Source of the DNA: a bacterium
Lineage (GTDB): Bacteria; Patescibacteriota; UBA1384; CAILIB01
NCBI GenBank assembly: GCA_037131105.1
Contig: JBAXRQ010000001.1
Location: forward strand, 130,039 to 194,038
Length of the DNA stretch: 64,000 nucleotides
Direction of reading: 5' to 3'
The notes beneath the pieces were generated by a model. The model saw only the letters and a list, made by a program, of their open reading frames with translations. It did no database searches and had not been told where the DNA came from. Positions 6,276 through 28,285 of the stretch are shown here, piece by piece (the first letter of the stretch is position 1; each line of letters starts with the position of its first letter). The position numbers and the translations under genes are program-made.

Positions 6276-7688
<1,413 letters not shown>

Positions 7689-10421: not shown

Positions 10422-12506
10422 CTAGGCTTTGGGTTCTTCCTTCTTCTCTTCCGTGGCCGGTGTCTCGGCAGCGGGTTCCGCCGGTTTGGCGGCTTCTTCA
10501 GCAGGCTTTTTGACGGGAGCTTCCTCTGTGGGGGTCGGCTCGGCAGCGGGCTCCGGAGCCGGCTCAGGTTTGACTTCTACAGCAGGTGGCTCTTCCTTTT
10601 TCTCCTCTACTGGTTCTGCTGGTTTCGACTCTTCAGTCGGAGGGGGCTCTGTTTTGGCGTCCTCAGGCTTTGTCTCGGCAGCCGGCTCTTCTTTCTTCTC
10701 TTCTGCGACAGGCGCCTCTGCGACTGGCTCGGCAGGCTTGGTCTCCTCCTTCTTTTCCTCGGCGGGCGCCTCCCCTTCCTTAGGTGCTTCTGTCTTGGCG
10801 TCCTCAGGCTTTGTCTCACCTTCGGCCGGCTTCTTTTCGCCTTCTGCGGGGGCTGCTCCTGGCTGGCTGGGGTCGGGGACTATGGGCATTGGCTTCTCCT
10901 CGGCCGGCTTCTCACCGATCAGCCATTTGGCACCTATCACGGGGGACTGGGCCACGTAGTCCTGGACAATCTTCATGATCAGGGGTTCCAGCACCGCAAT
11001 GTCCTTCTCGACCGGGGCCTTTTCCTTGAACTCAGGGTAAGAGCCCTTGCGGTAGAACTCGACGAGCTCGACCTTGATCTTGCGTACGTCCACCACTTCG
11101 ATGTTGTCAGCTTTGCCGGCGGTGATGATGTAGAGAAGTAATATCTTTTCGTCATTACTCATATTGAACCGGTAGTCCTGGGCCAGGGTCTCCAGGATGC
11201 GCTTGCCACGCTTGATCTCACGCTCGGTGTCCTCACTGATTTCAGTGTTTAGGGTCTCGAAGGACTTCACTTCCTGGTAGCGGGCCATTTGTGTGGAAGC
11301 CAGCTCGCCGACTTTTCGTAGGCAGGGGGGTTGTACGCTACCACCGATACGTGACACCGAGGCCCCAGAGTTTACGGCCGGGAAGATGCCTTCATGCATC
11401 AGATTCAGGTCAAGGTAGATATGGCCGTCGGTGATCGACATCAGGTTGGTGACGATGTACTCAGAGAGGTCGCCGTTCTGGGTCTCAGCCATGGGGAAGC
11501 CGGTAAGCGAGCCTCCCTTAAGATCTTCAGATAGTCGGGCAGTACGCTCCAACAGTCGGGAGTGCAGGTAGAAGATGTCGCCGGGATAGGCGTCGCGGCC
11601 AGGGGAGCGCTTCAGGAGCAGTGACATCTGGCGGTAGGCCTTGGCATGCTTGGAAAGGTCGTCGTAGATGATCAGGGCGTCCTGGCCCCCGTACATGAAG
11701 TACTCGCCGATGGCGCAGCCTGCATAGGGCGCGATGTAGTTCAGGGAAGGTGGATCGTCCGAGCTGCCAACTACCATGCAGGTGTATTCCATGGCGCCAC
11801 CGGCACGGAGCAGCTCCTCCAGCTCGCGGACCTTGGCCTTCTGGGCGCCGACTGCGACGTAGATACAGGTGATACCGCGGCCTTTCTGGTTCAGGATAAG
11901 GCTGGCAATGAGGCGGGTCTTGCCTGACTTTCTATCTCCGATGATTAGCTCGCGCTGTCCTTTGCCTATGGGAATGGTGGCGTCCACTACCAATATGCCG
12001 GTCTCAAGCTGGTTTACCACCGGTTGGCGTTTGGCGACTCCAGGAGCTAACCGTTCTACTTGCTGATAGGTCGAACTACGGATGGCACCGCGGCCGTCGA
12101 TGGGGATACCCATAGGGTTCACTACCCGTCCGAGCAGCTGCTCGCCGGACTGGATCCTCAGTACTGATCCGGTGGACCTCACCACGTTTCCCTGGCGGAT
12201 TTTTAAGTATTCTCCTAATACCACTGCCTCGATAAGGGTGGTGCTAATACCGAGAATAAGGGCTTGGGTGATACTTTCGCCAGTATCGATGTCCACCACT
12301 TCCTCGATACGGGCCGAGGGTAGTCCCTTGATCTTTACCACTCCGTCACCGACGTAGACCACCTCGCCGATCTCGGTGACCACCGGCTTCATGCGGGTGT
12401 CCGGCAACGACTCGGCCAACTGTTGGGCGAGCTGCTTGACGGTGGAAGATTCGGGCGGAGTCTGGGTCTTTGGCATGAAGGCTATTGTTTGGACATTTGC
12501 TTCCAA
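10422..12506 (-). CDS. atpA: F-type ATP synthase alpha subunit with a roughly 180-aa low-complexity Pro/Ala/Glu/Lys-rich C-terminal extension.
   Basis: Walker A GDRKSGKT plus the alpha-type N-terminal beta-barrel and C-terminal helical domain (about 515 aa). The same frame then continues through …KPAEEKPMPIVPDPSQPGAAPAEGEKKPAEGETKPEDAKTEAPKEGEAPAEEKKEE…EEKKEEPKA until the stop at 10422. Confidence 0.9.
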   Translation of the reverse strand: MEANVQTIAFMPKTQTPPESSTVKQLAQQLAESLPDTRMKPVVTEIGEVVYVGDGVVKIKGLPSARIEEVVDIDTGESITQALILGISTTLIEAVVLGEYLKIRQGNVVRSTGSVLRIQSGEQLLGRVVNPMGIPIDGRGAIRSSTYQQVERLAPGVAKRQPVVNQLETGILVVDATIPIGKGQRELIIGDRKSGKTRLIASLILNQKGRGITCIYVAVGAQKAKVRELEELLRAGGAMEYTCMVVGSSDDPPSLNYIAPYAGCAIGEYFMYGGQDALIIYDDLSKHAKAYRQMSLLLKRSPGRDAYPGDIFYLHSRLLERTARLSEDLKGGSLTGFPMAETQNGDLSEYIVTNLMSITDGHIYLDLNLMHEGIFPAVNSGASVSRIGGSVQPPCLRKVGELASTQMARYQEVKSFETLNTEISEDTEREIKRGKRILETLAQDYRFNMSNDEKILLLYIITAGKADNIEVVDVRKIKVELVEFYRKGSYPEFKEKAPVEKDIAVLEPLIMKIVQDYVAQSPVIGAKWLIGEKPAEEKPMPIVPDPSQPGAAPAEGEKKPAEGETKPEDAKTEAPKEGEAPAEEKKEETKPAEPVAEAPVAEEKKEEPAAETKPEDAKTEPPPTEESKPAEPVEEKKEEPPAVEVKPEPAPEPAAEPTPTEEAPVKKPAEEAAKPAEPAAETPATEEKKEEPKA

Positions 12507-13578: not shown

Positions 13579-15660
<2,082 letters not shown>

Positions 15661-15738: not shown

Positions 15739-17187
15739 TTATTCGTAGCGTAATGCCTCAACCGGGTTCATCCTAGCTGCGCGTACTGCTGGCCAGTAGC
15801 CTGCCAACATGCCGACGATGGTGGTAGTGGCAATGGTTACCATGATTAGCCATGGCTGTATGCCTAGCACGCTCAACGGGATTCCCTGTGAGGAGAGTTG
15901 GCTGCCGGCAAAGTGACTGACTGCTAAGGAGGCGGCATAGGCAATCGCACAGCCGAATAGTCCGCCCCAGAAGCCTAGTAGGGCGGCCTCAAAGGTGAAG
16001 AGACGTCGCACTGCGGCTCGGGTAGCTCCGCAGGCTCGCATGACGCCGATTTCGCGGGTGCGCTCTAAGGTGGCCATGATCATAGTATTGATCACGCCAA
16101 TGGCGGCTACGAAGAGGGAGATGCCGCCAATGGCTCCGAAGACGATGCTGATCATCTTGAAGATCTGCATGATCTGGTCAATCATTTCTTGAGCGGTAGC
16201 AGCCCCGAGCCCCATTTTCTTTACTGCCGCTGCGACGCCGGCCACATTTTCTACGCTATCTACCTTTAGTACGAGCGAAGAGTAGCCTTGCTGATCGAAC
16301 TGACTCATCGAAGTCAGCGTGTACTCAGGTGCGGGCTGTGAGCACTGTCCCATGGTCTTGCCGCAGTCGACCGGTGCTTGTTCCTTCTGTTGCCACTGCC
16401 ACTGGGTCATCAGCTTCTTGGCGTAGCTCAGGGGAATGAAGTCCTCACGGTCATAGACGCCTGCCGCCAGGACGCCGACCACCGTGATGGTCTGGTGACC
16501 TTGATGGTTCTTAATGGTGTTGTAATAGTCTTCATTGGCCTGCTTGCTATTGTTCTGACCGGGGTCCTGGGTAGGAGGAAGGGGAACATTCTTGTCATCA
16601 CCTACGTACCCTTGGGTGGTGAAGTTCAGGGTCTGGCCAACAGCGGCTGCAGCCTGGTCCTTGGCGTATCCCATCTTGATAAGGGTTTCCTGACTGATTA
16701 GGATGCTATTGTCGTCGTCCGGCGTAAGGTTTCTTCCGGCTACGATGGGACGTTCGGTCAGTGGGCTGGGCTGGTAAGCGATGGTATCGCTATTGGAGAG
16801 GTTGAGCTTTTTGCCGCTGGCGTCGGTGATGGAGGATTGCTTCATAACCCAAGCGCTGAGCTGGGCGTAGCCACCGCTAACGTGGGGGATGGCGTTTACC
16901 TTGGTCAGTATGGCATCGGTAAGCTTTGCGGTATCGCCACCACCACCAGAATTGCCGCTGAATACGCTGTCAGAGCTGATGTCGGTATTTCCACTGACGG
17001 CGACCTGGGTTAGGGCGCCAGCGCTTTCAATTTGGCTGATGGCAGCGTCTTTGGCACCGAAGATGATAGTAAGCATCAGAACTACGGATGTAGCCCCGAT
17101 CATGACTGCGATAATGGTCAGGATGGTCCGGGCCTTCTGACGCCAGATGTTTTTTAAGCCGAAGCGAATGTAGTCTATGAATTTCAT
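15739..17187 (-). CDS. ABC transporter permease of the FtsX/MacB family with a large extracytoplasmic domain.
   Basis: N-terminal TM helix, then a roughly 250-aa periplasmic domain, then a C-terminal three-TM FtsX-like module ending …MNPVEALRYE. It overlaps the ATPase gene by 4 nt. Confidence 0.75.
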   Translation of the reverse strand: MKFIDYIRFGLKNIWRQKARTILTIIAVMIGATSVVLMLTIIFGAKDAAISQIESAGALTQVAVSGNTDISSDSVFSGNSGGGGDTAKLTDAILTKVNAIPHVSGGYAQLSAWVMKQSSITDASGKKLNLSNSDTIAYQPSPLTERPIVAGRNLTPDDDNSILISQETLIKMGYAKDQAAAAVGQTLNFTTQGYVGDDKNVPLPPTQDPGQNNSKQANEDYYNTIKNHQGHQTITVVGVLAAGVYDREDFIPLSYAKKLMTQWQWQQKEQAPVDCGKTMGQCSQPAPEYTLTSMSQFDQQGYSSLVLKVDSVENVAGVAAAVKKMGLGAATAQEMIDQIMQIFKMISIVFGAIGGISLFVAAIGVINTMIMATLERTREIGVMRACGATRAAVRRLFTFEAALLGFWGGLFGCAIAYAASLAVSHFAGSQLSSQGIPLSVLGIQPWLIMVTIATTTIVGMLAGYWPAVRAARMNPVEALRYE

Positions 17188-17888
17188 CGTGATTCTCTTA
17201 CTTTGCCGTCTTGGATGGAGATGACCCGGCTGGCCTGCTTGGCGATATTCGGGTCGTGGGTAATCACAATGAGGGTGATGCCCTGTTTGTTGAGTCCTTT
17301 GAGAAGCTGCATGATCTCATCCCCCTTTTGAGAGTCGAGGTTTCCGGTAGGCTCGTCGGCGATGATGATGCTGGTCTGGTTGGACAATGCCCGGGCGATA
17401 GCCACGCGTTGGCGCTGGCCTCCGGAAAGCTGGTTAGGATAATGTCTCAGCCGATCGGCCAGGCCCACTGCCTCTAGACACTCTTTGGCTCGTTGGGTGC
17501 GGGCCTTGCTACCGGTCTTGGCCAGGACCAGGGGAAGCATGACGTTTTCCAGGGCGTTGTAGCTGGCCTGCAGGTTGAAGGACTGGAAGACGAATCCGAT
17601 ATGTTTGTTCCGGTAGAAGGAGAGCTTCTTGTCGCCGACTTTGGAGAGGTCCTCACCGTCAATCTGAACAGTGCCCTCGTTGGGGGTGTCCAGGCCGCCG
17701 ATGATGTTGGCCAGGGTAGACTTACCCGAGCCAGAAGGTCCGACGATAGCCAGGAACTCACCGCTTTTGACCTCGAGATTCACTTTATCCAGGGCGTTCA
17801 CCACCTCGTCACCTAGTTTATAGGTGCGGCTAACGCCCTTTAACTCAATGATGGCTGTATCCATGGGAAGGCTACTAATTTGTACCAC
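17184..17888 (-). CDS. ABC transporter ATP-binding protein (MacB/LolD-like).
   Basis: Walker [10 protein letters not shown], the ABC signature [15 protein letters not shown], and Walker B IIIADEPT. Confidence 0.9.
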
Positions 17889-19723: not shown

Positions 19724-21829
19724 TTACCGCTGTCCCATCCAGCCAAGCCACACATAAAGAGAGGCAATCGAGTTGCTGTTATCTAGCGCGAGAGAAGTAG
19801 AGAAGTTTTGCTGGGCAACCTTGGGGTCATGCATGGCCTGGGCCATGAGAAGGACATCCTGCCAGCCGCCATAGGGGGCACCGTTTAGTTCTTGGGTGAG
19901 CGCACCTAGATCCCTGCCGATGAGATTGTTCTTCTGTAGGTACAGTGAAGCGCCGTTCAAAGGGAGGTAGAGAATACCATGTTTGGCCTCAGGCATGGGA
20001 CTGAACCAGGTTTCGAAGCTTGCTTTCCCTGACCAGAGAAGGGAAACCGTCTGGTGATTATAACCGGCAGGAAACGGGTGGTGGGGATTGGCGTTAAAGT
20101 AATAGGTCTCGGCGGCTGTGCGCTCTTGGTTGTACAGATCTTTACCTAACTTCTCGAGATGGGGGTTGTGCGAGGTTTCCCCCCACAGTATAATCCCGTA
20201 CCAGGCGTTCATGGCTTCTGAAACAGATTCCTGGTTGTTTCCGTCTGAGAAAGATGTTAGTCCGTCTGCCCAGCTGTGTCCGGCGTACATATCAACGACA
20301 CGGAGATAGGGAAGTGAGCTGTCACCGTGACGATCATTGGCAATGTCGGCGGCAATAGCATTAACGGCGGGGGCATAGTCTTTGGTAAATTGGCTGTCAT
20401 AGCGTCCTAATATGGCGCTGGCATACAGAAAATATCCGTAATGGAATTGGTGGTCATTGAAGTTTTCGCTGCCAAATTCCGGTGTAACGGCGACGAGTCC
20501 TTTGATAGTCGGATCGTAATAAAAATAAGTGGTACTTTCTCCTGGGGAGTAGGTTAGCCAGTTGGTCAACTGGTGAGAAAGGGCCTGTTTGTAGGCTTCA
20601 GCGGTCGGGCTCTGGGCTTTTTCGGCAATATCTAGGAGAGTTGCCAAACGGTACAGCTCCTTAGCACCGTTATAGGAGGTACTAGCTGGCGTGGTGTCGT
20701 TGGTGAGGCCTTCCTGGAGGAACTGTTCTAAGGTGATGCGATTAAAGAATCCGTCCGTCCTGGGTAGAGGAGTTGATGTTACTAAGTCCTCGTCCGAATA
20801 GGTGAGGCTAAGGTCATTTCCCTCAAGTAGACGGGCAGTACCAAGTAGAGTGGTGTATGTGCCGAGCGAAGGCCGGGCCAAGGTGTCCGCGGTTTGCTGG
20901 TGAGGAAGAAGAAGGAACAGAGTGGGCTTGGAGTCGGAAGTCCCCCAACCAAGGTGGACGGTAGAGGCGGTTCCACTTTGGAATCCAGCCTGGGTGCTGG
21001 TGATAGGTGAAGCGGCTGTGCGGTCAATGGTCTCCTGAAGGTTGGGGGCCGGAGTACCGTTGGGAAAAGCTGCCACGGTAAGCTTGCTGCCCGACGTGAG
21101 GGTCAATCGATTCTTGACGAGGGTGGTGCTCACGCTGGGACTATAGATGGCGTAGGTCTGGTCACGGATAGTGAAAGTGGTAGCGGTGCGCCCATCGGAA
21201 AGCCTCCGCTGGGTGGCGGTATCTGTGGGCAACAAGACTGTGGCCTGGCTATAGAGAGTGAAATATTCGAAAGGGCTGCCCTCAACCAAATGGGAGTCGG
21301 CAATGCTTTGACCGCTGGTAGTAAGCGCAGTAATTGTGACTGAAAGATCGTCATAAGCGGTCACCTCACTCTTGGCCAGGGCAGTATCGGGAAAAGTAAT
21401 CTGGATATCTGGCTGCAAGGGCGTGACAATGCTGTCGGCACTTATCTGGACAAGGGGTACGCCTGTCTTTATGCCATCTTTTGAAAGGTTGTAGGTAAAA
21501 GGAGTACTGAAAAGAGTCTGTGGCCAGGTTCCAGTTAGTGCGCTTACCCACCACGTATTTGTGGGTACGGGCTTACGGGCTAGTTCTGGAGAGAGGTTTA
21601 AGGGTCCGATTTTGGTTGAAGGTGCTCCGTCGAAGCGGATGCTGGCCTTACTTCCGGCGAAGGTGTCAGCACTCAGTACTGGTTGTAGCACCTCCGTGCG
21701 GTGGCTTCGCACCCAAAAGAAGGCACCAGTGCCAACGGCACAGATGAGTATGAGGCCGATCCAGGCGCCTGCGCGCTGCAGTTTTACAGGAGGTGTAGCT
21801 GCTGGAGGAAGGGGGAGAAGGTCTCCCAT
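19724..21829 (-). CDS. Membrane-anchored glycoside hydrolase, GH81-like (putative endo-beta-1,3-glucanase).
   Basis: N-terminal TM helix (AWIGLILICAVGTGAFFWV). The motif FNDHQFHYGYFLYASAIL matches the GH81 ND(H)HFHYGY block as I remember it, and …QESVSEAMNAWYGIILWGE matches the GH81 catalytic Glu region. This was not verified by any search. Confidence 0.55.
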   Translation of the reverse strand: MGDLLPLPPAATPPVKLQRAGAWIGLILICAVGTGAFFWVRSHRTEVLQPVLSADTFAGSKASIRFDGAPSTKIGPLNLSPELARKPVPTNTWWVSALTGTWPQTLFSTPFTYNLSKDGIKTGVPLVQISADSIVTPLQPDIQITFPDTALAKSEVTAYDDLSVTITALTTSGQSIADSHLVEGSPFEYFTLYSQATVLLPTDTATQRRLSDGRTATTFTIRDQTYAIYSPSVSTTLVKNRLTLTSGSKLTVAAFPNGTPAPNLQETIDRTAASPITSTQAGFQSGTASTVHLGWGTSDSKPTLFLLLPHQQTADTLARPSLGTYTTLLGTARLLEGNDLSLTYSDEDLVTSTPLPRTDGFFNRITLEQFLQEGLTNDTTPASTSYNGAKELYRLATLLDIAEKAQSPTAEAYKQALSHQLTNWLTYSPGESTTYFYYDPTIKGLVAVTPEFGSENFNDHQFHYGYFLYASAILGRYDSQFTKDYAPAVNAIAADIANDRHGDSSLPYLRVVDMYAGHSWADGLTSFSDGNNQESVSEAMNAWYGIILWGETSHNPHLEKLGKDLYNQERTAAETYYFNANPHHPFPAGYNHQTVSLLWSGKASFETWFSPMPEAKHGILYLPLNGASLYLQKNNLIGRDLGALTQELNGAPYGGWQDVLLMAQAMHDPKVAQQNFSTSLALDNSNSIASLYVWLGWMGQR

Positions 21830-22434
21830 GCGGGGTTGCTAATGAATAGTGATACGCTGGCTGGCATGCCGGGAATGAGCCGGTCGCGTTCAGGGCTGTC
21901 CTCAATGCTTACGTAGACACTTACGACTCCGTTGACGCTGTCGTATTGGGGGAAGATGGTGGAAATACTGCCTTTGAAGGTGGTATTGGCTACGCTAATG
22001 CTAACTGGCATGCCGATCTGCAACTTGAGGAGATCCTCCGGGCTGATCACGAGGTTAGCCTTAACGAAGATGTTCTGGTTATCAATGATCTCAGCGAGCT
22101 CGCTTTGAGGCTTGGTGAAACCGTTCTTGCTCACGGTGATGCTTTGGATAATGCCAGCTTGATTGGCGGTGTCAGTTTCTATGCTACCCTTGCCGTCATC
22201 AACCTTGGCAATGACTGTATCGGGTTGAACGACCTGGCCGATGTGTACGGGAATCTCTTTCACAATACCACCGGCGGTGGTGCCGACTGGAATAATATTT
22301 GCGGATACCTCTGCCTTGGTGGAAGTAATGAATGAGCGCTTCTGCAGCTTCTGACTGGCGGCATAGGCGGTCACTCCGCTCAAGGCAGCTAGAAAGACAA
22401 CGATGATGATAAATGTCTTAAACAGTTGTTTCAT
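21784..22434 (-). CDS. HlyD-like periplasmic adaptor (biotin-lipoyl-type hybrid barrel protein), membrane anchored.
   Basis: N-terminal TM helix, then a segment resembling a membrane-fusion-protein lipoyl/beta-barrel (…GQVVQPDTVIAKVDDG… and …QIGMPVSISVAN…). The call is weak. Confidence 0.4.
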   Translation of the reverse strand: MKQLFKTFIIIVVFLAALSGVTAYAASQKLQKRSFITSTKAEVSANIIPVGTTAGGIVKEIPVHIGQVVQPDTVIAKVDDGKGSIETDTANQAGIIQSITVSKNGFTKPQSELAEIIDNQNIFVKANLVISPEDLLKLQIGMPVSISVANTTFKGSISTIFPQYDSVNGVVSVYVSIEDSPERDRLIPGMPASVSLFISNPAWETFSPFLQQLHLL

Positions 22435-23974
22435 ACGTAGGGAGGGTTAGGGAGACGGGTTGGTCTTTGCTGTGGGAAATACTTCGACTGGGCAGAGTCT
22501 CGATGATGAGTCTTCCTAGAATACATACATTCAAGAAGGTCCAGGTGACTGAAATAAACAAGGCTACTGATGGCGTATTAATGAGGAGTGCCAATGAGGC
22601 CGCCGTGACCATTACGACTGCGCAGCACACTTGGTTTAACACGGTGTGGAAACCAGCCCGCTTACTTCCGCCTGCCTTATTGGTAACCTGCCAGGAGTGC
22701 TGCTTGTTCAACAGTACATTCCACATAGCTTTGATATAGATGGGGAAGGTAGCCATTGAAAGTGCAATAACCTGCCAACGTACCCGTCCTTTGACGTGAT
22801 AAATGAGAATGAACTGCGCCAAGAAATACGGAAGAAAATGGATGAGCCAAGATGAGGACTGGGCATGAATGGGGATGATGTCGAAGAACAGGTATAGAAC
22901 AGGTAGTAGGATAAGAATGGCGACCGCCAGACCAGTGAAGTAATAGGTGGTAGTAAGGAGGTACTGGATTTTCTGGTCAGTGGTTAGTTTGCCCTTCATG
23001 AGTAGTGGGTTGGCTCGGAAGAATATCTCGAAACCACCAGCGGCCCAACGAAGCTGTTGTTTCAGGTAAGCTTCAGCGGTTTCGGGGGCCTTGCCGATAG
23101 CTAGTACCTTGGGTAAGAATACCGATTGCCATCCCTTCTGATGGAGGAGATAAGAGGTCCAGATATCTTCAGAATTTGATCGATAGACACCGCCTACGCT
23201 ACCTAGAGCCTTACGAGAAAAAACGGCGTTGGTACCTACCCAGAAGACTGAGTTAAATCGGTTCTTACCGGGACAGATTAGGGAATAAAAGAGATCCTGG
23301 GTCTCGGCAGAGCCAGTGGCGATGTAGCCGTTCAGGTTTTCATAATGCTGGGGGGTTTGGACGAAGGCAAGGTTCTTGTTCCAGAAGAACGGCATTGTTT
23401 CCTCTAGGAATGTGGGAGAGGGTACGTGATCGGCGTCAAAGATGGCGACATACTCCCCGTCCGTGTAGGTAAGAGCATAGTTTAAGTTCCCTGCCTTAGC
23501 ATGTTCATGACTGGGGCGGCTGATGTAATAGACACCAAGCTCTTGAGCAAGGGACTCGATAGCGGGTGAATGTCCGTCATCCAGGATGTAGGTAAGGTGA
23601 AGAATGGACATGTCTCGGGCAGCTGTAACCGTTTTTCGCACTACGTCGATGGCCTCGCCGTAGACAGTTACGAAGACGTCAATGGTGGGTATCTGTGAGG
23701 CGTGAGCGGGGAGACTAAGTAAACGCTCACGTTCAGCTTCATACCTGTGCTGATCTGGATGATGATTGATTCCGGCAAGAATGGTCCACCAGGAGCCGAT
23801 GAGCTGGAACATGCTGATAGTTTCGGCCAGCAGGAGGAGTAGGTAGGGTATGAGGTCACCACCATTGGCTGGATTTAAGAGGAAGCCGGCATAGAACATG
23901 GCAGCCAAAATAGCCACTCCGATAATGGAAAGAGTGCTCACTTGGATGTGATGATGGTCGGCTGCAGTTCCCAT
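22418..23974 (-). CDS. Processive family-2 glycosyltransferase (cellulose/curdlan-synthase-like beta-glucan synthase).
   Basis: The canonical D, D, D, QxxRW set is present: DDGHSP, FDADH, VGTNAVFSRKAL and QQLRWAAGG. TM helices flank the cytoplasmic GT domain on both the N- and C-terminal sides. Confidence 0.8.
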   Translation of the reverse strand: MGTAADHHHIQVSTLSIIGVAILAAMFYAGFLLNPANGGDLIPYLLLLLAETISMFQLIGSWWTILAGINHHPDQHRYEAERERLLSLPAHASQIPTIDVFVTVYGEAIDVVRKTVTAARDMSILHLTYILDDGHSPAIESLAQELGVYYISRPSHEHAKAGNLNYALTYTDGEYVAIFDADHVPSPTFLEETMPFFWNKNLAFVQTPQHYENLNGYIATGSAETQDLFYSLICPGKNRFNSVFWVGTNAVFSRKALGSVGGVYRSNSEDIWTSYLLHQKGWQSVFLPKVLAIGKAPETAEAYLKQQLRWAAGGFEIFFRANPLLMKGKLTTDQKIQYLLTTTYYFTGLAVAILILLPVLYLFFDIIPIHAQSSSWLIHFLPYFLAQFILIYHVKGRVRWQVIALSMATFPIYIKAMWNVLLNKQHSWQVTNKAGGSKRAGFHTVLNQVCCAVVMVTAASLALLINTPSVALFISVTWTFLNVCILGRLIIETLPSRSISHSKDQPVSLTLPTYETTV

Positions 23975-24173
23975 GTGGATGCTAGCTATTCAGAGGTATA
24001 GCGCGACCTCATGGCGAGGTCGAAATGCTAGAGACATCCTAGCAGGGAATAAGTGATTTGTCAATCTGGTAGACTCTTATTTTGAATTGTTGCACGGATA
24101 AGAAGTGGCTACTGGTAGTGGAGTACGTACAAAGCCTGGTGGGTATGGCACGAATGGCGGGGTAGAGGCCAGA

Positions 24174-24300
24174 GGGAGTCGTTTACTCTCTAACGCGAAC
24201 TTTTCCGACCTGCCCCCGGCAGGTCATAGCGGGACTCTCCTCCCTCGCCCCATATACAGAGAAAAGAGCTCCAGCAAGCTGAAACTCTTTTCTCTGGTAG
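24174..24300. repeat. Copy 1 of a roughly 113-nt hairpin-rich unit, flanked by tRNA-Glu 3'-end-like fragments (gggagtcg … tggtag).
   Basis: About 90% identical to 25065..25176. The last 52 nt are identical (ccccatatacagagaaaagagctccagcaagctgaaactcttttctc). Confidence 0.8.
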
Positions 24301-25401: not shown

Positions 25402-26268
25402 CTACTCCCAATCCTTTAAACTCTCCTGATACGCGTCTATAGCCAACCTGCCCGCTCCATAGATCCCGGCCTCCTCACCTAGCTTCGCGGCTATAACCTT
25501 GCAGGGGGCCGGATCCTGTAAGTAGTGATCCAGGTCACGGCTGCCGACGCCTCCCACGATGATGGTATCGCAGTGGTATTCGCCGTAGATTGCCTGTATG
25601 CACTGGATGAAGAAATAAGAGATTGCGTGCCAGACCTCCTTTGAGTCCTGATCGCCGGTTCTGACTGCTTCTGATTCGTGAGCTAGTTCAATCTGTAGGC
25701 GTTCCTGAAGATTGCGGCCACCAATGAAGGATTCGACGCTACCGCGACCTGACTTACTCGGAAACACGTCAGAGGGGTCAACGCTGATGCGTCCGACTTC
25801 CTGGCCAATGTCCTGGGGATGGGGTCGTACAATTCCCCTGCGCATAACGGCGCCTCCGATTCCGGTACCGATAGTGATCATGACAGCGCTGGATAGCTCC
25901 TGAGCCGCTCCCAGCCACACCTCGCCAATGAGGGCGCAGCGGGCATCATTGTCCATGGCAAAGACGGTATCAGGGAAGCGCTCCGCCAGACGGTCTACTA
26001 GGGGGAAATTACTGAGGGAGGGGATGTTGGTGCACAATGCAGTGGAATGCCGGTCGGAGCTCAAGGTACCAGCAATACCTATGCCTACGGCTGTGGCTGG
26101 GTGTGCCTCGATGGTCTCCACTAGTGCCTGCATGAACGCCTCTGCGTCTGCCGGGGTGTGGTAACGACCAGAGGTAAGTAGCTTGCCCTCTTCGGAGACG
26201 AGGCCCCAAGCGACTTTGCTGCCGCCAATGTCGAAGCCGAGATAACTCTTGTCGGTATTAGTGTTCAT
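25402..26268 (-). CDS. ROK-family sugar kinase (glucokinase / N-acetylhexosamine kinase-like).
   Basis: N-terminal YLGFDIGGSKVAWGL sugar-kinase motif. Length and Gly-rich motifs fit ROK. It overlaps the next gene. Confidence 0.75.
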   Translation of the reverse strand: MNTNTDKSYLGFDIGGSKVAWGLVSEEGKLLTSGRYHTPADAEAFMQALVETIEAHPATAVGIGIAGTLSSDRHSTALCTNIPSLSNFPLVDRLAERFPDTVFAMDNDARCALIGEVWLGAAQELSSAVMITIGTGIGGAVMRRGIVRPHPQDIGQEVGRISVDPSDVFPSKSGRGSVESFIGGRNLQERLQIELAHESEAVRTGDQDSKEVWHAISYFFIQCIQAIYGEYHCDTIIVGGVGSRDLDHYLQDPAPCKVIAAKLGEEAGIYGAGRLAIDAYQESLKDWE

Positions 26269-27637
26269 TGCGTAGTTGAGCCCCCTCCGCTGTTAGGAAT
26301 TGCATTAGTTCGTCTTGGGCCTCCTTCAGCTTCTCCTGTGAACGTGCCTCTAGGTTCATGCGCATAAGTGGCTCACCGTTTGAGAGGCGCAGATTCAGTC
26401 TCCAGTCAGGATACTCTGCGCTGATGCCGTCGGCCAGGTCCTGCTTGGCGTCTGAGTATTTGGTAGTGGCCTTCTTGATGATCTCCTTGCCCATGTCGGT
26501 GGTGAAGTTCAGTTCGCCGCTGATAGGGTAATGCTCGAGGTAATAGTCGAGCAGATCGGAGACCGTGCCGCCTCCCTTGATGTGCTTGCCGAAGATTTTT
26601 AAGGCAGTCAGGAAGGTGAGCATACCGTTGTCACAGTACCAGAAGTCCTTGAAATAGAAATGACCGCTGGTCTCGGCGCCAAAAACGGCGTCAAACTCGC
26701 GCATGGTGCGCTTGAAGAAACCGTGTCCGGTCAGGCTGTATTCGGTCTTTCCACCGGCCTCTTTGGCGGCGTCAATGTTGGCCCAGGCCAGACGTCGCTC
26801 CACCACTGCGGTGGCACCGGGGTTCTCCTCTAAGAAGTGCTTTACCAGGAAGGCGGAGATGTAGTACCCATGAAACCAGCGACCTTTTTCGTCGTAGAGG
26901 AAGCAGCGATCAGCATCGGCGTCCCAGGCGACACCAAAGTCGGCACCCTCGTCTATGATCTGCTGGCAGAGTTCGGCCCGGTTCTTGGCCTGCATGGGGT
27001 CAGGTGGGCCTTTGGGGAAGGTACCGTCCTCGTTCCAGTTCAGACGGCTGACCGTCAATTCGGTGAGCGGGGCGACGGCGGCATCGACTACCTTGCCATT
27101 GGCGCCGAAGTTGACGTTGGCAACTATGGAGAGCATGGGTAGGTCGGCAGGTAGGAACTTGTGAAGGTACTCAGAATAGGCAGGTAGCAGGTCGACGGTC
27201 TCCAGCTTTCCCTTCTCAAACTGCTCAATGCTGCGGCTGGACTGGATGAAGTCGTAGATCTCGCCAAGCTTCTCATCACGGGTAAGGGGGATGCCGTTCT
27301 TAGAGACGCACTTGAAGCCGTTCCATTCGGCAGGGTTGTGGGAGGCTGTGATGCTGAGGCCTCCGTCGCAGTCCAAGGTGGCTGAGGCGAAGTAGAGCAT
27401 TTCCGTGGAGATGACCCCGATGTCGATGGCGGTAGCACCGGCGTCGCGGATGCCTTCGATGGCGGCTGCCTGTAGGCTTGGGCCGGTAGACCTGACGTCA
27501 CGGCCTACTAATACTCGCTTGGCACCCATGACCTGGACGAAGGCCTGGCCGGCGGCGTAGGCCACCTTCTCGTTCATCTGGCCGGGGTAAATGCCGCGGA
27601 CGTCGTAAGCTCGGAAGATGGAGGGATCGTAGATCAT
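26258..27637 (-). CDS. Phosphomannomutase / phosphoglucomutase (alpha-D-phosphohexomutase family).
   Basis: Active-site motif TASHNP (phosphoserine loop). N-terminal YDVRG. Four-domain length. Confidence 0.85.
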   Translation of the reverse strand: MIYDPSIFRAYDVRGIYPGQMNEKVAYAAGQAFVQVMGAKRVLVGRDVRSTGPSLQAAAIEGIRDAGATAIDIGVISTEMLYFASATLDCDGGLSITASHNPAEWNGFKCVSKNGIPLTRDEKLGEIYDFIQSSRSIEQFEKGKLETVDLLPAYSEYLHKFLPADLPMLSIVANVNFGANGKVVDAAVAPLTELTVSRLNWNEDGTFPKGPPDPMQAKNRAELCQQIIDEGADFGVAWDADADRCFLYDEKGRWFHGYYISAFLVKHFLEENPGATAVVERRLAWANIDAAKEAGGKTEYSLTGHGFFKRTMREFDAVFGAETSGHFYFKDFWYCDNGMLTFLTALKIFGKHIKGGGTVSDLLDYYLEHYPISGELNFTTDMGKEIIKKATTKYSDAKQDLADGISAEYPDWRLNLRLSNGEPLMRMNLEARSQEKLKEAQDELMQFLTAEGAQLRNEH

Positions 27638-27646
27638 GGGGCGATA

Positions 27647-28285
27647 TTACGTAGTAAACGGGTACGCTCTTACTTTAGCCTCTTTTAATAGGACTGGAAA
27701 GACAGAATCCTCCAGACTCACGATGCCGGCAGGGATGGAGGCAAGAAGGGAGGGATCGGCGATCCAGAGTCCAGCCGAGGCGTAGCCGTCTTGGCGGGGG
27801 CAGAGCAGGGAAGTGAGAGGGGCCTGGTGTTGTCGGTGGAATACGTAAGGGGTAAGCAGGCCGGTAGGGAGCGGGGTACGTGAGGCATCGGCCCGAGCGA
27901 TGAGAAACGGGGCATCTAGCTCGGCATGTTTGAGTAGTAAGGCTCCCCCGCTGCCAAAGTCAGAGGGGACGGCGGAGACGGTGGCCTCAGGTACTAGCTG
28001 ACCGATGGAGATAGCAAGCTCAGTGGGCTGGCCAATGAAGCTGACCAGGTATATTGTCTTTATCCCGGCGGCAGCCATCAGACGGACTAAGGCTTCGGGA
28101 CGGGAGGGCTCATAGTCGGGGTAGAGGAAGAGAAAAGCTTGGTCGAGCCTGTGCAGGCCGATACCTTCCTTCAGGAGGTGTTCGATGGTTTGTGACCGGT
28201 TACGCAGGGACTCGCCGTCCACCAGGGCGTCTACAGCCTGGAGCAGCTCGGCATCAAGGGTGATGGTGAGGCGTTCGCGGTACAT
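27647..28285 (-). CDS. Ribbon-helix-helix N-terminus fused to a nucleotidyltransferase-like region (putative sugar-1-phosphate nucleotidyltransferase relative).
   Basis: N-terminal RLTITLDAELLQAVDALV fits the CopG/RHH pattern. GSGGALL resembles the LGTGGA motif of sugar-nucleotidyltransferases. The GxGxRL N-terminal motif is absent, so this call is weak. Confidence 0.3.
   Translation of the reverse strand: MYRERLTITLDAELLQAVDALVDGESLRNRSQTIEHLLKEGIGLHRLDQAFLFLYPDYEPSRPEALVRLMAAAGIKTIYLVSFIGQPTELAISIGQLVPEATVSAVPSDFGSGGALLLKHAELDAPFLIARADASRTPLPTGLLTPYVFHRQHQAPLTSLLCPRQDGYASAGLWIADPSLLASIPAGIVSLEDSVFPVLLKEAKVRAYPFTT

Follow-up and report, generated by a model that had tools for sequence, protein, structure and literature searches.

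The window analysed here is a stretch of 64,000 nucleotides (nt) from a bacterium of the Patescibacteriota (assembly GCA_037131105.1, contig JBAXRQ010000001.1, positions 130,039 to 194,038 of the forward strand). It contains three overlapping genes, which encode a cellulose synthase-like glycosyltransferase of family GT2, a small membrane fusion protein (MFP) of the HlyD type and a glycoside hydrolase of family GH81. An inspection of the letters alone, hereafter the sequence-only reading, had interpreted them as a module for the synthesis and export of a beta-glucan. Its three open reading frames (ORFs) were found again in their places, all on the minus strand (Table 1). The overlaps were likewise read from the sequence: that of GT2 and adaptor amounts to 17 nt (GT2 stop TAA at 22420-22418, adaptor ATG at 22434), that of adaptor and GH81 to 46 nt (adaptor TAA at 21786-21784, GH81 ATG at 21829). 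Upstream of the transmembrane helix of the GH81 protein, the sole alternative start is a non-canonical CTG about 3 nt past the adaptor stop. The overlaps suggest translational coupling, as had been proposed, and functional coupling is reinforced by synteny in four phyla. We hardly doubt that the cassette is a synthase-dependent beta-glucan secretion operon.

Table 1. Genes and candidate regulatory features of the locus, in window coordinates.
Feature	Position	Strand	Size or description
GT2 synthase ORF	22418..23974	(-)	518 aa
HlyD-type adaptor ORF	21784..22434	(-)	216 aa
GH81 ORF	19724..21829	(-)	701 aa
Sigma-70-like promoter candidate	24036..24064	(-)	TTGACA-17 nt-TAGGAT, TG preceding second hexamer
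18-bp hairpin	24258..24296	(-)	minimum free energy -31.8 kcal/mol, z = -5.3

The first gene product is a processive GT2 enzyme. Pfam assigns it to PF13632 (Glyco_trans_2_3, 84.7 bits) and PF03552 (Cellulose_synt, 80.4 bits). The CelA model TIGR03030 is matched with 289 bits (E=5.7e-86), PgaC with 61 and NodC with 26 bits. The equivalog cut-offs for BcsA are not reached, neither that of TIGR03030 (699 bits) nor that of NF008558 (239 vs 992 bits). The motifs D, DxD, TED-like and QQLRW, which the sequence-only reading had pointed out, are invariant in a family alignment of 42 sequences, the third as an SED variant: DDG132-134, D180-A-D182, S268-E-D270 and Q306-Q-L-R-W310. The gating loop, canonically FxVTxK, reads W428-Q-V-T431-N-K, with W and T invariant. 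A PilZ domain is missing, because the CelA profile match ends at position 561 of 714.

The predicted structure agrees with the profiles. GT2 aligns with the BcsA structures of E. coli and Rhodobacter over residues 42-512 (7lby, E=6.3e-57). Its AlphaFold2 (AF2) model, built with 42 homologues (pLDDT 87.2), has two N-terminal transmembrane helices and further ones in the C-terminal part; the chain ends about 25 residues beyond the last of them, and residues 494-518 form a low-confidence tail without predicted secondary structure. Superposition on E. coli BcsA (9b8v_E) gave a TM-score of 0.80 over 512 columns; plant CesA and CslF6 reached about 0.7, hyaluronan synthase about 0.5. Profile scores, BcsA fold and invariant motifs therefore define a synthase of the processive beta-glucan type, not a chitin or hyaluronan synthase, and the grouping with BcsA-type enzymes that had been anticipated was found. 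Homologues abound (about 1,000 matches at E<=1e-20), and the closest named ones belong to Actinomycetes and Saccharibacteria.

The second gene product had been described as a small membrane-fusion-like protein, and so it is. It matches PF16576 (HlyD_D23, 47.5 bits) and PF13437 (HlyD_3, 44.4 bits), both over the curated cut-offs, as well as TIGR01730, the model of the MFP subfamily associated with resistance-nodulation-division (RND) pumps. A hydropathy scan reveals one N-terminal transmembrane segment (residues 8-26); this anchor is followed by a barrel-sandwich (lipoyl) domain and a beta-barrel. The protein has about half the size of a classical adaptor. The top Foldseek matches of its model are all MFPs: BesA of Borrelia comes first, then MacA and CusB. 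BesA is known as an MFP without an alpha-hairpin. The AF2 model is poor (pLDDT 61), because only three sequences went in; it predicts only short helices between the strands, and residues 92-121 are of low confidence. Judged mainly from the fold matches and from the length, since 216 aa apparently leave no room for it, the adaptor probably lacks the alpha-hairpin. Homologues depend on the search: a word-indexed one returned 3, an exhaustive profile search 310, many of them 230-250 aa long.

The public annotation calls the protein an 'efflux RND transporter periplasmic adaptor' (NCBI). This label is misleading, as we here deal with a HlyD-type adaptor that serves as partner of a synthase in probably monoderm cells. 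In more than 40 loci its conserved neighbour is the GT2 gene and not a transporter of the RND, ATP-binding cassette (ABC) or major facilitator (MFS) type. The HlyD-like character seen by the sequence-only reading is confirmed. A classical role as tripartite export adaptor that reaches a channel in the outer membrane is unlikely: the hairpin is apparently absent and the hosts are probably monoderm.

The third gene product belongs to GH81, and no result placed it elsewhere. It contains both Pfam domains, PF17652 with 204.2 bits (cut-off 25.6) and PF03639 with 28.7 bits (cut-off 25.6), and aligns with the solved structures 6FOP, 5T49 and 4K35 across residues 85-695 (6FOP: E=4.5e-73, 86-695). The blocks FNDHQFHYGYF and NNQESVSEAMNAW, which correspond to the family patterns NDHxFHYGY and NNQESxSE, hold D459, E534 and E538; in an alignment of 12 GH81 sequences these three do not vary. 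We take these residues to be the catalytic Asp/Glu/Glu, with the roles assigned in studies of RmLam81A and BhGH81. The one N-terminal transmembrane segment (residues 22-40, hydropathy scan) corresponds to the anchor noticed by the sequence-only reading. By sequence, the protein is a membrane-anchored homologue of endo-beta-1,3-glucanases, with the catalytic domain outside the membrane. To our knowledge, all characterised GH81 enzymes are endo-beta-1,3-glucanases. Tethering is predicted for the linked GH81 proteins in general: the window's clade has the transmembrane anchor, and actinobacterial homologues, taken irrespective of gene context, start with lipobox-like sequences (LSGC/LTGC). All in all, the window enzyme looks like a synthase partner, not a forager.

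How common is this arrangement? A GH81 profile was scanned against one genome per GTDB species, and 80 loci were kept among the matches listed; the best identity to the window GH81 was 35 % among these matches. Linked loci were called from six-frame ORFs, which were searched with the window proteins and with a hidden Markov model (HMM) of the middle gene. A GT2 of the same clade and a short MFP were present at 42 of the 80 loci, hence in at least 42 GTDB species. Thirty-eight of these loci are collinear (GT2, MFP, GH81), two from Moraniibacteriota have GH81 first and two are cut by contig ends. The hosts are Actinomycetota, Saccharibacteria, Moraniibacteriota, Peribacteria and Ktedonobacteraceae; represented among the actinobacteria are, inter alia, Cellulomonas (three genomes: L044, L047, L079), Leifsonia, Microlunatus, Propionibacterium, Actinomyces, Sanguibacter, Isoptericola and Actinoplanes. 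The partners are clearly lacking at 30 of the 80 loci, which stem from Verrucomicrobia, Planctomycetes, Firmicutes, Myxobacteria, Armatimonadota and a few Actinobacteria; contig ends made the remaining 8 unjudgeable. Sampling from the GT2 side gave the same picture, with MFP and GH81 downstream in 4 of 4 homologues.

The middle genes are homologous to the window adaptor (hhalign probability 99.5 %, E=3.8e-23, 20 other loci), and 20 of 20 tested matched HlyD_3 and HlyD_D23. In the collinear loci, i.e., the 38 from GTDB and the metagenomic contig L004, the adaptor has about 240 aa, is membrane-anchored and starts at the GT2 stop. Of the GH81 relatives, that of L004 comes nearest to the window protein (57 % identity); its cassette agrees with that of the window in genes and gene order but has other flanks. 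The more distant L001 (GH81 identity 42 %) is rearranged: GH81, a small GT2, a 655-aa membrane protein, the BcsA-like GT2 and the short MFP. According to the adaptor HMM, the adaptor directly follows GT2 here too, as in L006 and L009, which are rearranged and, like L001, from the candidate phyla radiation (CPR), and in the truncated L057 and L060. Gene order thus varies, the GT2-adaptor pair is fixed and GH81 stays nearby, which argues for selection on function.

The membrane protein just mentioned recurs. A conserved protein of 655-684 aa is encoded between GH81 and GT2 in two Moraniibacteriota genomes and two metagenomic contigs (L001 12980-14947, L005 2229-3566, L006 11873-13927, L009 11873-13936). 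It belongs to no known family and is largely hydrophobic, its copies are 23 % identical (E=7e-54), and the window does not encode it.

Trees were built by neighbour-joining from stop-to-stop ORFs and carry no bootstrap support. In the GH81 tree, most linked genes, that of the window included, stand together. The unlinked and presumably degradative genes of Verrucomicrobia, Planctomycetes, Firmicutes and Myxobacteria lie apart from them, as do four unlinked genes of actinobacteria; a few linked ones (L022, L056, L040 and L052) branch deeply, next to the unlinked group. The adjacency is conserved, the codons overlap, rearrangement is tolerated and the genes have in part diverged in concert. Taken together, this speaks strongly for a cooperation of the three proteins.

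Some genomes are doubly equipped. A Demequina species has two complete cassettes in tandem (L094 273-9617), and in an Actinoplanes species a full cassette is adjoined by a further GT2-MFP pair, which is encoded on the other strand (L040 7286-15081). These duplications match a published count: three sequenced cellulomonads contain each exactly two CrdS-like GT2 and two GH81 genes (PMC3544764). In open-access full text, where GH81 was looked for together with GT2, cellulose synthase, curdlan operons or Patescibacteria, no description of a GT2-MFP-GH81 cassette was found. The cassette thus appears to be widespread but undescribed. The sequence-only reading had called the arrangement not commonly described, which fits the literature searched; rare, however, it is not.

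Which glucan is made? Systems of the synthase-dependent kind carry a hydrolase gene for the polymer they make, and for GH81 no activity other than that of an endo-beta-1,3-glucanase is known to us; a curdlan-like beta-1,3-glucan is therefore the most likely product. Cellulomonas, which carries the cassette, makes curdlan (PMC3544764; PMC3035266). That the product is essentially a beta-1,3-glucan we regard as probable. The favoured reading as a whole, a synthase-dependent secretion module for what is probably a beta-1,3-glucan, with a built-in glucanase for trimming or mobilisation, is in our view the better supported one, although by no means beyond doubt.

The module could work as follows. 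GT2, whose fold, motifs and channel architecture are those of BcsA, would polymerise UDP-glucose, its presumed substrate, at the cytoplasmic face and thread the beta-glucan through its own transmembrane channel. It has neither PilZ nor the C-terminal domain of BgsA; control is therefore probably transcriptional, and post-translational control by cyclic di-GMP (c-di-GMP) is unlikely. At the outer face, the adaptor would assemble around the channel exit and support activity or guide the chain through the wall, akin to CrdA, BgsB or BcsB, here minus an outer-membrane partner. In Agrobacterium-type curdlan synthesis, transposon insertions in crdA abolish curdlan, with polarity being possible (PMC10819609). 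Finally, the tethered GH81 enzyme would cut beta-1,3 bonds. It could thereby free or shorten the chains, remove polymer that has stalled or, at a later stage, make the glucan available as a carbon reserve. Such a role is suggested because synthase systems encode a hydrolase or lyase for their own polymer, e.g., BcsZ for cellulose and CcsZ in clostridia. The host genome encodes shortened ValS and PolA and contains MurE and an F-type ATPase. If, as is probable, the host is monoderm, no TolC-like partner is to be expected.

The synthase was compared with reference GT2 loci: BgsA of S. meliloti and E. adhaerens (preceded by BgsB of the HlyD family), BcsA-BcsB of Cereibacter and E. coli, the crdASC-like locus L088 on pAt15955 and another HlyD+GT2 pair on pAtC58. 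An earlier phylogeny of beta-glucan synthases spans only proteobacterial and cyanobacterial clades (PMC6821405).

A number of points weigh against the favoured reading. The GH81-linked GT2 proteins form a clade of their own, and the window GT2 is just 21-30 % identical to all references, be it BcsA, BgsA or the CrdS-like protein. The latter, moreover, is a proxy: the L088 gene was picked by gene sizes and a match of 15 out of 17 to the ribosome-binding site/start motif of crdA, and it is not the verified gene of ATCC 31749. At the position of RsBcsA Glu299, which has been singled out for linkage and is Arg in CrdS and BgsA (PMC6821405), the window GT2 has Asp, and the clade varies between D, H, S, R, E and N. 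The clade also retains the BcsA-type Tyr302. Its donor sugar and product are presumed. The specificity of GH81 is taken from characterised relatives that are distant (about 30-35 % identity). The missing hairpin of the adaptor is concluded mainly from its length (216 vs 340-480 aa) and the top fold matches, and the probable monoderm, CPR-like nature of the host from a contig of 949 kb, shortened housekeeping proteins and the taxonomy of homologues.

Other features of the synthase resemble CrdS. The clade has FCVGT(N/S) and SED, as does the CrdS-like protein; BcsA has FFCGS and TED, BgsA FCCGS and TED. A 5-residue deletion after QTPQ is private to the clade. The signature is thus mixed, and the attempt to read the linkage off the GT2 sequence was given up: FCVGT/SED is CrdS-like, Tyr302 BcsA-like and the Glu299 position variable. 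The case for a beta-1,3 product is therefore built on the partner, GH81, and on the physiology of Cellulomonas, not on the synthase. Membership in CrdS proper has to be abandoned in view of the separate clade, the mixed signature and 23 % identity to the CrdS-like proxy.

The third step of the mechanism has a variant. GH81 might be mainly catabolic and re-use the cell's own surface or storage glucan in starvation instead of trimming it during secretion. C. flavigena accumulates curdlan and reportedly degrades it by a route called unclear (PMC3544764, citing Siriwardana 2011), and a ROK-family kinase and a phosphoglucomutase are encoded just upstream of the operon. Translational coupling, however, implies that the glucanase is made together with the synthase, and the cassette encodes no oligosaccharide transporter. 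We therefore consider a mainly catabolic role rather unlikely, while giving it more credit than the rivals that follow.

The next alternative accepts the architecture and changes the product. The polymer would be cellulose or a mixed-linkage (1,3;1,4)-beta-glucan, and GH81 would cut its 1,3 bonds or have diverged in specificity. The top HMM and structure matches of GT2 are indeed cellulose synthases, the window protein has Tyr302 and, where RsBcsA has Glu299, an acidic residue, and the mixed-linkage system bgsBA is likewise built from a PilZ-less GT2 and an MFP. Yet the characterised GH81 enzymes, as far as is known, are all beta-1,3-specific, and the hydrolases of known cellulose systems belong to GH8, GH5 or GH6. 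In FCVGT and SED the synthase is like the CrdS-like protein and unlike BcsA and BgsA, and the cassette-bearing Cellulomonas makes curdlan. Even though a Gram-positive GT2 that makes a mixed-linkage glucan is known (PMC10374906), we deem this alternative distinctly improbable.

Two further proposals are very unlikely. The middle gene might encode an efflux adaptor for a drug or peptide pump, e.g., the MacB-type ABC transporter whose genes follow 4 kb further downstream (15739-17888); its adjacency to GT2 would then be incidental. It does match HlyD/RND-MFP families, and a MacB_PCD/FtsX permease and an ATPase lie nearby on the same strand. In more than 40 loci of four phyla, however, the adaptor gene comes after that of GT2 and shares codons with it, no MacB-type gene is adjacent in the loci whose neighbours are listed (L001, L004, L092-L095), and in the window itself an IMPDH gene and a 125-aa ORF stand between the adaptor operon and the MacB genes; the pump hypothesis was rejected on synteny. 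Equally far-fetched is a GH81 enzyme that forages on external beta-1,3-glucans such as fungal walls or laminarin and has nothing to do with the synthase: the characterised bacterial enzymes of C. thermocellum (6FOP) and B. halodurans (5T49) are degradative, but that of the window is membrane-tethered and not secreted, its linkage to GT2 is seen from both sampling directions, and foraging-type genes occupy a different tree branch.

The favoured secretion module for a beta-1,3-glucan invites a bolder proposal. The cassette could be the curdlan machinery of Gram-positives such as Cellulomonas, with beta-1,3 synthases that arose independently of proteobacterial CrdS, a hairpin-less adaptor that needs no outer membrane and a GH81 enzyme that both releases and mobilises the polymer. 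We put this forward tentatively, being ourselves inclined to some doubt. If it is true, Saccharibacteria and other CPR bacteria coat themselves with beta-1,3-glucan, possibly for attachment to a host. The cassette as such suggests that a beta-glucan surface is made by some CPR bacteria in spite of genomes of only about 1 Mb. Curdlan is of industrial use, and Agrobacterium is the only source from which its genetics is known. The curdlan genes of Cellulomonas and the route of re-use have never been identified (PMC3544764), and the cassette offers a specific three-gene candidate. It also points to a large clade of BcsA-like synthases that are so far uncharacterised, and the product of this clade could help to explain how GT2 enzymes choose between 1,3 and 1,4 linkage.

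The boundaries of the operon are less sharp than its genes. Before GT2 there are 530 nt of intergenic DNA. The promoter candidate of Table 1 precedes the start codon of GT2 by about 60 nt and, with 10 of 12 consensus matches, is the best in the region; as 5 promoter-like sites were found and 4.0 are expected in shuffles, it is a consensus match only. The hairpin, which was equalled by 1 of 200 shuffles, is placed between this promoter and an upstream unit of a 133-aa ORF and tRNA-Glu, and is likely an upstream operon boundary or insulator. It has no trailing U-tract, and its function as a terminator is therefore only presumed. Riboswitches, e.g., for c-di-GMP, were sought in the 530-nt leader with chance-level Rfam matches only; 0 of 4227 families reached the gathering score. 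On the other side, the distance between the GH81 stop and the IMPDH gene is 172 nt. No convincing candidate for an intrinsic terminator was found 3' of GH81 (folding z = -0.2); the downstream boundary is deduced from the 172-nt gap and a TTGACA-like box before IMPDH, which was read by eye. The region of the GT2 gene (22001-24000) has a G+C content of 0.497 vs about 0.55 for the window, a weak hint at horizontal acquisition.

Upstream of the operon and on the same strand (25402-28285, minus), a ROK-family sugar kinase gene overlaps one for a phosphoglucomutase/phosphomannomutase, followed by a ribbon-helix-helix protein. The two enzymes could supply glucose-1-phosphate for UDP-glucose. A UDP-glucose pyrophosphorylase was not seen near them.

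The window also contains an unusual atp operon. At 13579-15648 (minus strand), a 689-aa ORF combines an N-terminal signal or transmembrane segment, Ig-like (Big_1) repeats and a complete ATP synthase c-subunit (PF00137, residues 624-687), joined in frame without a stop between them. Either the protein is a genuine fusion, or two genes lack the stop that would separate them. The alpha-subunit gene of the operon encodes 694 aa, about 190 aa above the usual length (side regions 10422-12506 and 6276-7682, both minus strand).

Functionally, the module works like crdASC, bgsBA and bcsABZ, yet it is a member of none of them. It shares with crdASC, as represented by L088, a PilZ-less BcsA-like GT2 and a HlyD-family membrane protein in one transcription unit, and a beta-1,3-glucan is proposed for both. 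The CrdA-like protein matches PF13437, and the synthases have FCVGT and SED in common. The differences are nevertheless substantial. In crdASC the adaptor gene comes first, in the window it follows GT2; CrdA has 484 aa, more than twice the length of the window adaptor; the synthases, 23 % identical, belong to different clades; the third gene is CrdC, of no known family, instead of GH81; and the host is Gram-negative. No homologue of CrdC is encoded in the window.

CrdC deserves a remark of its own. The CrdC-like gene at L088 5908-7188 (pAt15955) matches no Pfam or NCBIfam family and has homologues of 32 % identity (E=6e-32), which adjoin cassettes in two actinobacterial genomes (L021 76-1704, L034 5294-6961). 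Its product matches, weakly, the structure of a GH162 endo-beta-1,2-glucanase (E=0.006). CrdC itself might be glycosidase-like.

The mixed-linkage system bgsBA of Sinorhizobium and Rhizobium has the same core, i.e., a HlyD-family adaptor and a PilZ-less BcsA-like GT2. BgsA, however, is longer (about 665 aa) and binds c-di-GMP through a C-terminal region (PMC5567048) that is absent from the window GT2; BgsB has 411 aa, and the system requires TolC (PMC13438883). There is no glycosidase gene in bgsBA, and BgsA, 23 % identical to the window GT2, forms a separate clade. Pairs of a HlyD-family protein and a PilZ-less BcsA-like GT2 were seen at L087 2756-5926 (pAtC58, a third type), L088 2255-5815 and L086 3679-6893. 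As such MFP+GT2 pairs recur on rhizobial and agrobacterial plasmids (bgsBA, crdAS-like, pAtC58), CrdA itself being of the HlyD family, the pair represents a general design.

With BcsA-BcsB-BcsZ the module shares the synthase fold (TM-score 0.80), the D/DxD/ED/QxxRW machinery and the logic of an operon-encoded endoglucanase that is specific for the product. It differs by a GT2 that lacks PilZ, scores under the CelA equivalog cut-off and has the 5-residue deletion after QTPQ, by a HlyD-type adaptor that replaces BcsB and by a GH81 in place of a GH8 hydrolase. BcsB follows bcsA in L089 and L090, whereas the neighbours of the window GT2 are the adaptor, GH81, IMPDH and the 133-aa ORF.

Monoderms provide further parallels. 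In Streptomyces, CslA-GlxA-CslZ (GH6) unites a BcsA-like GT2 with a cognate extracellular glucanase. The clostridial CcsA-CcsZ (GH5) likewise consists of a monoderm BcsA-like GT2 and its cognate extracellular glucanase (PMC7710045). Both differ from the window in their hydrolase families, their presumed beta-1,4 products and in having no HlyD-type adaptor.

As to the hydrolase, the GH81 domains of CtLam81A (6FOP) and BhGH81 (5T49/5UPI) align with that of the window, and the Asp/Glu/Glu triad is kept. These enzymes are secreted, often bear a carbohydrate-binding module or dockerin, serve degradation and have no GT2 neighbour. In contrast, the GH81 protein of the window is anchored in the membrane, coupled to a synthase and located on a different branch of the family.

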